From Escherichia phage EPIMAM01, in sequence record PQ493298: a stretch of DNA of 64,000 nucleotides, one strand, 5' to 3'. Below the pieces are notes generated by a model, which had not been told where the DNA came from, did not search any database, and saw nothing but the letters and a program-made list of their open reading frames with translations. The translations under genes were made by a program, and so were the position numbers. Positions 11,556 to 58,655 of this stretch are shown here, piece after piece. Numbering within the stretch: the stretch's first letter is position 1; each line of letters starts with the position of its first letter.

Positions 11556-12158
11556 TTATAGATTAAATCCTTCAAAATCAAGAGTATAGATAGTGTATGT
11601 TGAATACTTTTTATACTCATATCTATCCGCAATTCTAAATACACTTCCAGCTGGTATCATTACTTCTTGTTCATCTGAAACTAATTCCATATTACGATAG
11701 CGATGGCTATCTGGAAACTTAAAACTTGGACTATATTCTTTACAGCGTAGAGCTTTTATAGCATACTCCTGGAAATTAAACACCATAGGAGCTTTGAATT
11801 CAAAAATAACTTGTGTGTTGTATTCTAATCCAGAAGCAAAATGTAGAGCTATATTTTTATCATATGAAGCTGATACTACTTTATCAAATGTAATAATATC
11901 AATTCCTTGATTTAACACCTGTTTAGTCTCAGCTGGAACACCTCTCCAAAGAGGTTTATCGTTTGGAACCAAACGAGATTTGACTATTTCATTTAACCAA
12001 GAATGATCGTCTGGTTTATTAGTAATACAATGAATTAAAAGTTCAATTTCAGATAAATTAAATCCTTCGGAAAGTAATTCTTCACGAATAGAAGCACGCA
12101 CGGATGCATCCATTGATTTGATTTTAAAATCTTTTAATTGCATTGCTGAATATTTCAT
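11556..12158 (-). CDS. modA: ADP-ribosyltransferase
   Basis: Track ORF 200 aa; R (LWRG), S-x-S (SAS) and EQEVMIP ART motifs; modA/modB assignment by size. Confidence 0.65.
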   Translation of the reverse strand: MKYSAMQLKDFKIKSMDASVRASIREELLSEGFNLSEIELLIHCITNKPDDHSWLNEIVKSRLVPNDKPLWRGVPAETKQVLNQGIDIITFDKVVSASYDKNIALHFASGLEYNTQVIFEFKAPMVFNFQEYAIKALRCKEYSPSFKFPDSHRYRNMELVSDEQEVMIPAGSVFRIADRYEYKKYSTYTIYTLDFEGFNL

Positions 12159-12790
12159 TCAACTACCTCAATATCATACACTTTAAATGTTCCAAATGAA
12201 TCGTGTAATTTTTCTTTTGAAATAGAAGTTATTTTATACTTTCCAATTGGAATCATCCATTCTTGTTCACGTACAATCATCATTAAGTTATCAGTACGTT
12301 CTGAATCTAATCCATCAGTATCTTCATATGTATACTTAAATTCAGTATTAGGAGAAGAAAGTATAATATCACTGATATGGTCAGAATAATTAAAAGCTTT
12401 ATCAGTTTTTAAGCGAAATATTATTTCAGTGGAATATTCAACATAAGAAAAACCACATGCTGTGTGCAAACTAGTAGTAAATGAATCTACTCTGTTCGTT
12501 GAAAACACTTCTCCGATTTGTAAATCTTTAATGAGTTCTTTTGTCGATTTTGATATACCACGATATAGCTGATAAGGCGATTTAGTTAAATGCTTTTTAA
12601 CGATTTTATTCAACTTCCGATGAAGAGCTTCATTCTTTTTGGCTTCCATACATTGCCAAAGAACTGACTGTTCAAAGTCAGTAAATTTTTCACAGACCTT
12701 TTTATACATATCATATTGAAAATCGACACTTTCAGCTTTTATAGATAACTGTTCAACATCTGCGAGATTAATAATCATGATAGCCTCCAT
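12155..12790 (-). CDS. modB: ADP-ribosyltransferase
   Basis: Track ORF 211 aa; LYRG, STN and EQEWMIP ART motifs. Confidence 0.65.
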   Translation of the reverse strand: MEAIMIINLADVEQLSIKAESVDFQYDMYKKVCEKFTDFEQSVLWQCMEAKKNEALHRKLNKIVKKHLTKSPYQLYRGISKSTKELIKDLQIGEVFSTNRVDSFTTSLHTACGFSYVEYSTEIIFRLKTDKAFNYSDHISDIILSSPNTEFKYTYEDTDGLDSERTDNLMMIVREQEWMIPIGKYKITSISKEKLHDSFGTFKVYDIEVVE

Positions 12791-17643: not shown

Positions 17644-18000
17644 TTAACCTCTATTCATAAAAGCATTAAAAATTTGGTCATCAATCGATGGAATAGCAAC
17701 TTTTTCTGCATCATTTAGCAAATCATTAATTTCATCAGATAGCATAACGCATGTACCTTTATTTCCTGTAATTGTTACTGCACAATTACGAACGTTTTCT
17801 TTATCAAATTTTAGGTTAATATTTTCGTAGTGAAAATCCTTTAATGCCGAATATATTTTTAAAATGAAATTGTCTTTTACTACAATAAACCCAACCTCAC
17901 TATTAAAACGCGGTTCATGGAAACTGTAATAAACCTTTTCATCTATAAAATCGTATGAAATTTTTTCCATTTTTAAATATGAAAATTCAGAACTATACAT
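17644..18000 (-). CDS. hypothetical protein
   Basis: Track ORF 118 aa. Confidence 0.5.
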   Translation of the reverse strand: MYSSEFSYLKMEKISYDFIDEKVYYSFHEPRFNSEVGFIVVKDNFILKIYSALKDFHYENINLKFDKENVRNCAVTITGNKGTCVMLSDEINDLLNDAEKVAIPSIDDQIFNAFMNRG

Positions 18001-18012
18001 ACTAACCTCTAA

Positions 18013-18306
18013 TTACTCACCTACCACTTCAGCGATGATATTTTTATTATTAAAGTTTTTATCGCAATACAGAACATAATTATACTGCATTACACCGCCA
18101 GACTTAAGCTGTTTTTGCACTTCAGCTTTCATTTCAGGACGATCACGCTCAACGATATTCATAATATCTGCTTCAATTTGAGTTTCAACTTCAGTCTGAT
18201 CTGCAGTCATAGACCATTCACACAAATCTTTGTCATAACCCGCCATAGCAGGCTGAGCAGCGCAAGAAGATAAAGCAAAAATTGTAGCAAAGATAAATTT
18301 TTTCAT
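18013..18306 (-). CDS. sp: periplasmic superinfection-exclusion protein Spackle-like
   Basis: Track ORF 97 aa; cleavable signal peptide; size and position match T4 Sp. Confidence 0.65.
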   Translation of the reverse strand: MKKFIFATIFALSSCAAQPAMAGYDKDLCEWSMTADQTEVETQIEADIMNIVERDRPEMKAEVQKQLKSGGVMQYNYVLYCDKNFNNKNIIAEVVGE

Positions 18307-55963: not shown

Positions 55964-56545
55964 CTAACCGAGCTTTTTAGTTAATTCATTCCAATGTTTT
56001 CTACACAAAGAAACATAAATTTCATCACCAATACAGATTTGATTACCTTCTTTAACTGGTGTTCCATCTTCCATTAATCGAGCTGTCATAATAGCCTTTT
56101 TACCACAATGACAAACTGCCTTTAGTTCAATAAGTTTATCTGCAATCGCCAAAAGTTCTTTAGAACCTTCAAATAATTTTCCAGCGAAATCAGTCCTTAG
56201 TCCATAAGCCATAACAGGAACATTATATGTATCAACAATTCGGCTTAATTGATGCACCTGTTCAGTTTTTAAAAACTGGGCTTCATCTACAAATACACAA
56301 TGAATATCTTTTTGTGCTTCAGCCCATTTATAGAACTCAAAAATATCCATATCATCCGTAATAATATTCGCTTCCTGCTTAATTCCAATGCGAGAAACGA
56401 CTTCACAGACAGAATCACGAGTATCAATAGCAGGCTTAAGAACTAATACACCCATTCCGCGTTCTTTATAATTATGTGCAGCAGTCAAAAGAGAAGCAGA
56501 TTTTCCAGCATTCATTGCTGCGTAAGTAAAAATTAAACTCGCCAT
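55964..56545 (-). CDS. tk: thymidine kinase
   Basis: Track ORF 193 aa; P-loop AAMNAGKS and C-terminal Zn-binding cysteines. Confidence 0.92.
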   Translation of the reverse strand: MASLIFTYAAMNAGKSASLLTAAHNYKERGMGVLVLKPAIDTRDSVCEVVSRIGIKQEANIITDDMDIFEFYKWAEAQKDIHCVFVDEAQFLKTEQVHQLSRIVDTYNVPVMAYGLRTDFAGKLFEGSKELLAIADKLIELKAVCHCGKKAIMTARLMEDGTPVKEGNQICIGDEIYVSLCRKHWNELTKKLG

Positions 56546-56554
56546 ATCACCTTC

Positions 56555-56740
56555 TTAAAGCGTATTCACATAAGCTATTAATTCGTTTTCTTTCTTATCA
56601 AACCGATCAGCAAATTCTTCTTGCTGATCGGGAGATAGCGGGCCGTATTCATCATAAAAGGTGTTTGCTTCTGTATGCTCATCTAGAAGTTCATGGATAA
56701 GCTCAAACAATTTATCTTTTTGTTCTTTACTCAGACTCAT
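56555..56740 (-). CDS. small acidic hypothetical protein
   Basis: Track ORF 61 aa. Confidence 0.45.
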   Translation of the reverse strand: MSLSKEQKDKLFELIHELLDEHTEANTFYDEYGPLSPDQQEEFADRFDKKENELIAYVNTL

Positions 56741-56906
56741 ATATTAATTTCCAGGAGTTTTAAAATAATTCGCTTTTGCTTAAATATTTCCATAGTTAAA
56801 TGACCAGTATCTTTTTGACCGATTCCAATGGCAAAACCTTTATTGACAGCGAGTTCAATTAAATTATCAAGCTCACGTAACACTTCATATTGTAACTCAA
56901 AACTAT

Positions 56907-57134
56907 TCATTTCGGTTTACCTTCTTTAACGAAATCGGGATAAGGATAAAATCCTGAATAAAATCCTTCACCTTTATGATTGATGCATCCTTTATTAGAA
57001 CAATAGCACCAATAATCGAAATCACAAGCCATTTCATCATTACATAAAGCAAAAACAACTGGCCATTCACACTTTTCGCAGTGGGCATTTTTAAGAATAC
57101 TTGTTTGGCTCATAACCATGTAACCTTTAAACAA
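56907..57134 (-). CDS. small Cys-rich (putative Zn-binding) protein
   Basis: Track ORF 75 aa with 8 Cys; likely start at internal ATG; preferred over the overlapping 56903..57088 frame. Confidence 0.4.
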   Translation of the reverse strand: MFKGYMVMSQTSILKNAHCEKCEWPVVFALCNDEMACDFDYWCYCSNKGCINHKGEGFYSGFYPYPDFVKEGKPK

Positions 57135-57322
57135 TATTCTTCTACGTGTTGTTTACGACCTTTCTTATCAATAAAGGTATATTCAACGAATGTTCCAATA
57201 TAGTCTTTATCTACACCATGTGGACTATTAATTGGGCATTTAGTACGGCAAATGCGTTCCCATTGACAAATAATTTCCACTTTGTTTTTAGGATCAAACG
57301 GATGCGGGTAATGTACTTTCAT
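57110..57322 (-). CDS. small hypothetical protein
   Basis: Track ORF 70 aa. Confidence 0.45.
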   Translation of the reverse strand: MKVHYPHPFDPKNKVEIICQWERICRTKCPINSPHGVDKDYIGTFVEYTFIDKKGRKQHVEEYCLKVTWL

Positions 57323-57773
57323 AATCCACCACTATTAAATCAATATCAGGAGTAAACATGTCGATTAATTTAGAAACCTTATCCCAATCGCCGCCAGCAA
57401 TACCGCAACCTATACGTGGAATGTAAATTACTGGTTTAAACAAAAGGGTTTCTGCCTGTAGATTTAATTCTATCATGCAGTTTACTAAAGCACCATAATC
57501 AAGATTAGGACCCGGTTCGTATTGCGTATACAGGTTATAGCATATACCAAATCCCGTAGGACTATGTTTAAAAACAATAGACATATCGCCTAATTTATCA
57601 CGAGAACCGTACTCGGTAGTGGTTTTATCTATTTCTAAAATTTTGGGATAGGCTCTTGCTAATTGACCCGCTACGCCAGAGCCCATTGTGTGGAAGCAAT
57701 TGCACCCGTGCGCAATAATATTACCTTGAAGAAATAGGGCGACAATATCGCCCTTGATATATTTTACAATCAT
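57294..57773 (-). CDS. macro-domain protein (ADP-ribose binding or hydrolase fold)
   Basis: Track ORF 159 aa; GDIV...NIIAHGCNC...MGSGVAGQLA and IPRIGCGIAGG resemble macro-domain motifs. Confidence 0.55.
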   Translation of the reverse strand: MIVKYIKGDIVALFLQGNIIAHGCNCFHTMGSGVAGQLARAYPKILEIDKTTTEYGSRDKLGDMSIVFKHSPTGFGICYNLYTQYEPGPNLDYGALVNCMIELNLQAETLLFKPVIYIPRIGCGIAGGDWDKVSKLIDMFTPDIDLIVVDYESTLPASV

Positions 57774-58117
57774 CTAGTACTCAATCCTCGATTATAAGAA
57801 TCTACTAAACGGTCAACCATTGAATGACAAGCGGCTTTATCTTTCTCCTCCGCAACTGAACATTCTAAGGTATTCCACTTTTTAGCATATCGTTTTAACA
57901 ATGTATCATTTTTATATCTGCTTGATTTATCTCTTTCTCCATCTTTATATGCATATATTAATTTCTGCGCAAATTCAGCTTGGCATGCTTTATTTTTTCC
58001 GCAATAATCCGCGGCAGTACGGTTTACATACTCTCTAATTTCAGTATATGATGTATCTGCTAACGCAGAAGCAGAAAATGAAATTAATCCTATACATAAA
58101 ACCAAAATTTTAGTCAT
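57770..58117 (-). CDS. secreted or periplasmic Cys-containing protein
   Basis: Track ORF 115 aa; cleavable signal peptide. Confidence 0.5.
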   Translation of the reverse strand: MTKILVLCIGLISFSASALADTSYTEIREYVNRTAADYCGKNKACQAEFAQKLIYAYKDGERDKSSRYKNDTLLKRYAKKWNTLECSVAEEKDKAACHSMVDRLVDSYNRGLSTR

Positions 58118-58655
58118 TTACTATTTCCAAAAGTTTATTATTTTTAAGGTAATTAGCCTTTTCTAGGACTTCAGAAGCATATTTAGAACCTGCTTTAACA
58201 TTCCATCCCGAATTATAAGAGGATATTGCTTTTCTTATATCGCCCTTATGTATATTTAACCAATAAGAAAGTTCAATGTACGCCCAGGAAGCTGAATTGG
58301 ACCGTTTATTCAACATTCTTTTTATTTCAGCATCGGTCATATTATAACCAAGTTCCTTAACTCTTGCTCGCATAGTAGGCAAATAATTTTGGAACATTCC
58401 ATAGGCATGATGCTTTGGTTTAGATTTTAAATTAACTCCGGCAGAGCTTTCTTGCCATAAAATAGCAGCCATTATATGACCCAATCCGCTCTTGTGGATG
58501 TTTTTGTGTGTTTTATATTTTCCATCCTTAGAAAATTGTTCCCCGAATTGATATGCGTAGCGCATGTTATCGAGTTGGACATTACTGAAAGTATGCTCGG
58601 AGCTATGTGCCATCATTGAAATGGCCAATAGACCAGCGAGTAGTGCTTTTCTCAT
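58110..58655 (-). CDS. secreted lytic-transglycosylase-like protein
   Basis: Track ORF 181 aa; signal peptide; SLT motifs E-S, GMFQ and YNSG. Confidence 0.6.
   Translation of the reverse strand: MRKALLAGLLAISMMAHSSEHTFSNVQLDNMRYAYQFGEQFSKDGKYKTHKNIHKSGLGHIMAAILWQESSAGVNLKSKPKHHAYGMFQNYLPTMRARVKELGYNMTDAEIKRMLNKRSNSASWAYIELSYWLNIHKGDIRKAISSYNSGWNVKAGSKYASEVLEKANYLKNNKLLEIVND

Follow-up and report, generated by a model that had tools for sequence, protein, structure and literature searches.

A small gene near tk in Escherichia phage EPIMAM01 (PQ493298) raises the question of which ADP-ribose mark a stand-alone phage macrodomain would act on. A preliminary description had proposed that this gene encodes a macro-domain protein which could reverse or read ADP-ribosylation, either the phage's own or a host defence mark such as DNA or RNA ADP-ribosylation. 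We followed up this proposal by sequence, profile and structure comparison in the window, by which we mean the whole stretch of 64,000 nucleotides that was analysed.

The proposed ORF proved to be real. It is an ATG-initiated frame encoding a single-domain protein of 159 aa, and lies on the minus strand, which had been left unspecified (Table 1). All of the motifs named in the preliminary description were present, namely GDIV (residues 8-11), NIIAHGCNC (18-26), MGSGVAGQLA (30-39) and IPRIGCGIAGG (118-128), and the codons of H22 (57708-57710), N25 (57699-57701) and Q84 were confirmed by eye in the DNA. The gene had been placed beside tk; tk (55964..56545) is indeed nearby, but it does not adjoin the gene, with four small ORFs (tk.1, an extra ORF, tk.2 and tk.3) between the two. 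The direct neighbours are tk.3 (57110..57322) and vs (57770..58117). The vs stop codon (TGA) and the start codon of the gene overlap in the sequence ATGA, as they do in T4, and a purine-rich GAGGA is found upstream of the start at 57785..57789. The overlap suggests that the gene may be co-transcribed and translationally coupled with vs. A promoter and terminator scan gave 13 sigma-70-like sites, fewer than the 17.5 ± 3.9 in shuffled controls, and no convincing element directly upstream of the gene; transcription appears to occur by read-through from vs. Further upstream, vs.1 (58110..58655, 181 aa) encodes a signal-peptide-like N-terminal hydrophobic stretch and belongs to PHROG 600 (function unknown). 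One phage record carries the annotation 'transglycosylase SLT domain-containing protein' under its match to 56900..58200, which possibly refers to vs.1.

Table 1. Positions of features of the tk.4 locus in the window.
Feature	Position	Strand	Basis
tk.4 / adfM coding sequence	57294..57773	-	ORF, Pfam Macro, AlphaFold2, Foldseek, match to T4 Tk.4
ATGA overlap of vs stop (TGA) and tk.4 start (ATG)	57770..57773	-	Read from sequence
GC-rich hairpin (AGGGCGATATTGTCGCCCT), perfect 8-bp, codons 7-13 of tk.4	57736..57754	-	Terminator-like scan
Divergent allele cassette	57294..57733		Sliding-window identity in a MAFFT alignment of window with T4
Codons H22-G33 (HGCNCFHTMGSG), predicted distal-ribose Asn25, His22 and first glycine-rich phosphate-binding loop	57675..57710	-	Alignment
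Gln84 codon, at the catalytic-lysine position	57522..57524	-	Invariant in 80 family members; several alignments
Codons P119-G128 (PRIGCGIAGG), predicted second glycine-rich diphosphate-binding loop	57390..57419	-	P119, G122 and G124 invariant

Around the gene, the DNA shares 99.9% identity with Escherichia phage UGKSEcP2 and has matches in hundreds of Tequatrovirus genomes; the window is Tequatrovirus. T4 (NC_000866) has tk.4 at this place, between tk.3 and vs, with a 155-aa product annotated 'phosphatase; contains A1pp phosphatase motif'. The window protein aligned with T4 Tk.4 over 155 of 155 residues without gaps (58% identity, E 1e-70). Since its neighbours are tk.3 and vs, its orientation is the same and the flanking genes (tk, tk.3, vs, vs.1 and regB) are 95-100% identical to those of T4, the gene is, by position, the T4 tk.4 orthologue. 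It is therefore a gene that is already known, and that was lately renamed adfM in T4; the preliminary description had not recognised it as named and annotated. Because the T4 record carries the A1pp phosphatase motif, the macro/A1pp nature of tk.4 is itself a long-standing annotation, and because the gene is already named, our identification of it adds little as discovery. Homologues are present in 2,789 phage records, under public labels that conflict with one another: 'phosphatase', 'RNase III inhibitor', 'MazF family toxin-antitoxin system protein', 'macro domain protein', 'Poa1p-like family protein' and 'hypothetical'.

The product of tk.4 is almost certainly a macrodomain. The profile search and structure prediction that had been recommended as checks both pointed this way: the protein scored 32 bits on Pfam Macro (PF01661), whose gathering cut-off is 22, with E 1.3e-7 and a match spanning positions 2-117 of the 118 in the profile, far more than chance would give. 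AlphaFold2, run with an alignment of 80 homologues, gave a confident model (mean pLDDT 93.9, pTM 0.89) with a predicted three-layer alpha/beta/alpha macro fold. Neither of the outcomes named as refuting, a missing profile match or an unrelated fold, was observed. The protein also matched PHROG 335, labelled 'phosphatase' (E 1e-71). The top Foldseek matches in the PDB were TARG1, which came first, Poa1p, BT1257, DarG (the T. aquaticus and M. tuberculosis proteins) and SCO6735, each with probability 1.00. At E<=0.001 the PDB yielded 167 matches, of which the best 50 were all macrodomains or macrodomain-scaffold designs. MacroD-type proteins (YmdB and viral Mac1 domains) stood lower, at E ~1e-6. 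Sequence and profile searches of the PDB returned the same relatives, the family profile matching BT1257 best (2e-19), then TARG1 (8e-17), SCO6735 (2e-15), Poa1p (5e-14) and DarG (6e-12). Tk.4 is thus a member of the ALC1/TARG1-like class, which contains TARG1, DarG, SCO6735, BT1257, Poa1p and ALC1, and not of the MacroD or PARG classes. The ADP-ribose pocket that had been read from the motifs was also borne out as a prediction from the alignment, in that N25, G31-x-G33 and G122-x-G124 vary little or not at all and line up with their counterparts in DarG, TARG1 and SCO6735.

We then compared the active site of Tk.4 with those of its relatives. Invariant residues in the alignment of 80 family members include H22, G23, N25, C26, G33, N80, Y82, Q84, P119, G122, G124 and W130, and for H22, N25 and Q84 this invariance covers both Tequatrovirus alleles. 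The counterparts of the H22-G33 segment are H24, N27 and the loop in SCO6735, and N22 in DarG. Q84 occupies the position of the catalytic lysine in DarG (K80), TARG1 (K84) and PhiKZ gp104 (K78), a correspondence on which MAFFT, hhalign (98.7% probability) and a profile-to-TARG1 alignment agreed. The position of TARG1 Asp125 is Ala126 in Tk.4. TARG1, the top structural match, differs from Tk.4 in having K84/D125 where Tk.4 has Q84/A126, and we rejected a TARG1-type Lys84/Asp125 dyad. Glutamine at the lysine position is common to BT1257 and SCO6735 (Q85), and the alignment of H22, N25 and Q84 with H24, N27 and Q85 of SCO6735 places Tk.4 in this glutamine-type group. SCO6735 is a proven hydrolase of ADP-ribose attached to thymidine in DNA and can rescue cells from DarT; its Q85A mutation abolishes activity, a water-mediated mechanism has been proposed, and its substrate range is broad (PMC9411070). 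Like Tk.4, SCO6735 (PDB 5E3B) and BT1257 (2FG1/2AFC) are stand-alone proteins encoded away from darT and share the His/Asn/Gln triad; unlike Tk.4, they are cellular rather than phage-encoded, and identity is only ~26%. The lysines implicated in DNA binding by SCO6735 also have no counterparts in Tk.4: S32 stands at the position of K34, and the mobile loop, longer and lysine-bearing in SCO6735 (K89/K93), is ~5-6 residues shorter and free of lysine in Tk.4. DNA recognition by Tk.4 would therefore have to differ. Going beyond the HIDEN-SEQ and PhiKZ papers discussed below, we suggest from these alignments that Tk.4 is best described as a phage glutamine-type enzyme whose active site is not DarG-like.

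This distinction separates Tk.4 from the two lysine-type proteins with which it might be grouped. DarG (DarG2; PDB 5M31, 5M3E and 5M3I) resembles Tk.4 in its macro fold, in its class and in its presumed substrate and role, as the antidote to DarT2. It differs in that its catalytic K80 is replaced by glutamine in Tk.4, which also has neither the C-terminal DarT-binding domain nor an adjacent darT; a search for a darT operon beside tk.4 found tk.3 and vs as neighbours. The NCBIfam DarG equivalog (NF048014) gave 27.7 bits against a cut-off of 250, and the PADLOC DarG profile was covered only at positions 3-144 of 329. We therefore rejected membership of DarG on the grounds of the glutamine for lysine, the weak profile scores, the missing second domain and the lack of a darT neighbour. 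On the PADLOC profile, the window protein (27.5 bits), T4 Tk.4 (36) and SCO6735 (34.5) stand against PhiKZ gp104 (132.9). PhiKZ gp104 was named AdfM in Cell Reports in 2026, and removes DarT2-made ADP-ribose from DNA in vitro (PMC13309987). Like Tk.4 it is a phage-encoded orphan macrodomain countering DarTG2, but it is of the lysine type (K78), and its identity to the window protein is only 20-23%, varying with the alignment used. Given the glutamine versus lysine site and the difference in PADLOC score, T4 Tk.4 and PhiKZ gp104 belong to different subfamilies, and the shared name AdfM is a coincidence of nomenclature; the PhiKZ paper does not mention tk.4 (PMC13309987). A bacterial homologue 40% identical to Tk.4 (P0094) is encoded on the chromosome of Pelagimonas phthalicica (L003 5001..5459). 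In this one context no darT or other defence gene was found within 5 kb, an orphan status resembling that of SCO6735.

The function of tk.4 has been addressed by genetics in T4. T4 lacking both adfA and adfN is still resistant to DarTG2, which predicted another factor (PMC11825919), a gap that adfM has filled. In the HIDEN-SEQ preprint of 20 November 2025, a host expressing DarTG2 was infected with a T4 transposon library, tk.4 was the single significant transposon hit under DarTG2, and a clean tk.4 knockout made T4 sensitive to DarTG2 (bioRxiv 10.1101/2025.11.20.689424). The authors describe Tk.4 as structurally similar to M. tuberculosis DarG, rename the gene adfM, for anti-DarT factor Macrodomain, and write that removal of the ADP-ribose from DNA by an enzyme 'seems likely' (bioRxiv 10.1101/2025.11.20.689424). 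Because of these genetics, removal of DarT2-made ADP-ribose from thymidine in DNA is the likeliest function, and we infer that tk.4 is probably an anti-DarTG2 factor acting in this way. This reading draws on the genetics of the orthologue, on a catalytic constellation conserved in both alleles and on the precedent of SCO6735. The genetic evidence stems from the T4 allele, which is only 58% identical to the window allele, and the absence from Tk.4 of the DarG catalytic lysine and of the SCO6735 lysines implicated in DNA binding counts against such a hydrolase. Of the two kinds of target proposed in the preliminary description, removal of a host DarT-type mark on DNA thus matches the genetics of T4 tk.4/adfM, while erasure of ModA/ModB marks found no support. 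At the locus of another anti-DarT factor, T4 gp61.2 (AdfA), only a 32%-identical partial tblastn match was found in the window (17644..18063), and the ORF there (17644..18000) encodes 118 aa against the 208 aa of gp61.2 in T4. From the partial match and shorter ORF, this second anti-DarT locus also appears strongly diverged or truncated.

The anti-DarTG2 role would proceed as follows. Host DarTG2 would release DarT2, which would ADP-ribosylate thymidines in single-stranded DNA and so block phage replication. The tk.4 (adfM) product would act as a stand-alone macrodomain ADP-ribosyl-glycohydrolase, an 'orphan antitoxin', its macro pocket binding the ADP-ribose and the ribose-thymine bond being hydrolysed to restore the DNA. 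The chemistry would probably be of the SCO6735 type, with Gln84, His22 and Asn25 positioning the distal ribose and a catalytic water, and would differ from that of DarG and TARG1, which depends on lysine.

Tk.4 might act in other ways besides hydrolysis, since SCO6735, DarG and TARG1 can all inhibit DarT without catalysis: the dead mutants SCO6735 Q85A, DarG K80A and TARG1 K84A inhibit DarT in vitro, SCO6735 most strongly (PMC9411070). Tk.4 might by analogy neutralise DarT2 mainly as an inhibitor or reader, by binding the toxin or shielding ADP-ribosylated sites. We regard this as improbable, given that the 159-aa protein has no DarT-binding C-terminal domain, its match to the DarG profile ending at position 144, and that every residue expected for glutamine-type catalysis is invariant, which would be unlikely for a pure binder.

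Two other substrates appear quite improbable. The first is a different nucleic-acid mark, either ADP-ribose linked to phosphate at DNA or RNA ends, as for TARG1, or ADP-ribose on RNA bases, as for CmdTAC, with the possibility that alleles differ in substrate range. The rank of TARG1 as the top fold match, the 42% of residues that differ between the window and T4 alleles and the broad range of SCO6735 (PMC9411070) are in keeping with it. Set against it, the sole genetic phenotype is against DarTG2, and CmdTAC is reported to give robust defence against T-even phages (PMC11618068), in a paper that does not mention tk.4; these phages evidently do not counter CmdTAC.

The second is a small molecule. 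Tk.4 would then be a metabolite enzyme like Poa1p, an ADP-ribose-1''-phosphate phosphatase or O-acetyl-ADP-ribose deacetylase clearing NAD-derived compounds during infection. Against this, turnover of such small molecules in vitro is a side activity of many macrodomains, and no pathway to Appr-1''-p is known to us in T4. The 'phosphatase' label of PHROG 335 and the A1pp motif in the RefSeq T4 record favour such an enzyme, and Poa1p is among the best matches in both sequence and fold and shares the H-x-C-N-C motif, differing from Tk.4 in its known activity on small molecules. The only phenotype reported for the T4 orthologue is nonetheless specific to DarTG2 (bioRxiv 10.1101/2025.11.20.689424).

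The phage's own ADP-ribosyltransferases supply the last candidate substrates. Both are encoded in the window as had been described: the products of the ORFs at 11556..12158 and 12155..12790 share 97.5% and 95% identity with T4 ModA and T4 ModB, respectively, and each matches PHROG 832, 'RNA polymerase ADP-ribosylase'. Alt, ModA and ModB modify arginine, whereas ALC1/TARG1-like macrodomains are known for acting on ester-, phosphate- and thymine-linked ADP-ribose rather than Arg-ADP-ribose; we found no report of a member of this class cleaving the arginine linkage. Arginine-specific macrodomains do exist, MavL being one example (PMC10951314). That Tk.4 erases or tunes RNAylation by ModB, or the marks that Alt, ModA and ModB place on RNA polymerase, S1 or EF-Tu, is highly improbable, as modA and modB lie 45 kb from tk.4 in the normal T4 gene order and the preprint gives tk.4 a phenotype only under DarTG2 (bioRxiv 10.1101/2025.11.20.689424). 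We rejected a functional link between tk.4 and modA/modB, finding only the usual T4 synteny.

The anti-DarTG2 reading leaves the divergence of the two alleles to be considered. T4 Tk.4 and the window protein have in common the tk.3-tk.4-vs slot, the ATGA overlap, a single domain and all of the family-invariant residues. They differ at 42% of residues, in four extra C-terminal residues of the window protein, and in the second loop, which reads GIAGGDW in the window protein and GIGKGNW in T4. At the DNA level this divergence is confined to a cassette with about 60-70% identity to T4, set between flanks of 95-100%: the first 40 nt of tk.4 are identical to T4, and the gene body from 57294 to ~57733 diverges. 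This divergence, too, is a point beyond the HIDEN-SEQ and PhiKZ papers. Both alleles are common, alleles at least 90% identical to that of the window occurring in 312 phage records and the T4 type in 224; UGKSEcP2 and PBM-1 are among the phages with the window allele. Such divergence within a conserved backbone fits arms-race selection, and would be typical of genes exchanged in this way.

Exactly where identity to T4 drops from ~98% to ~70%, at the 5' cassette boundary, lies a GC-rich hairpin (Table 1). It matched the terminator-like scan on both strands, and RNA folding of 57725..57800 gave a z-score of -2.2; the hairpin could serve as an element of the mRNA or have arisen by chance. Adjoining the tk.4 cassette is a second mosaic patch (56500..57100), in which other sequence takes the place of the T4 tk.1-tk.2 interval. 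The alignment there has many gaps and identity to T4 collapses, and three small ORFs are found at 56555..56740, 56737..56910 and 56907..57134 where T4 has two.

Bacteria are known to defend themselves against phages by ADP-ribosylating their DNA with DarT toxins, and phages answer with 'orphan antitoxins'. tk.4 is the macrodomain arm of the T-even answer, beside the NADAR enzyme AdfN, which acts against DarTG1, and AdfA. The labels 'phosphatase' and 'hypothetical' thus hide an anti-defence gene relevant to the host range of therapeutic T4-like phages. What remains of interest in tk.4 is its glutamine-type active site and its allelic divergence. It is tempting, if rather doubtful, to suppose that the diverged cassette alleles have different specificities, for DarT2 variants, bases or nucleic acids, and that the glutamine-type Tk.4 was acquired independently of PhiKZ AdfM. 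If this were true, the tk.4 locus would act as an allelic switch for counter-defence, carried by T4-like genomes that hardly differ elsewhere.
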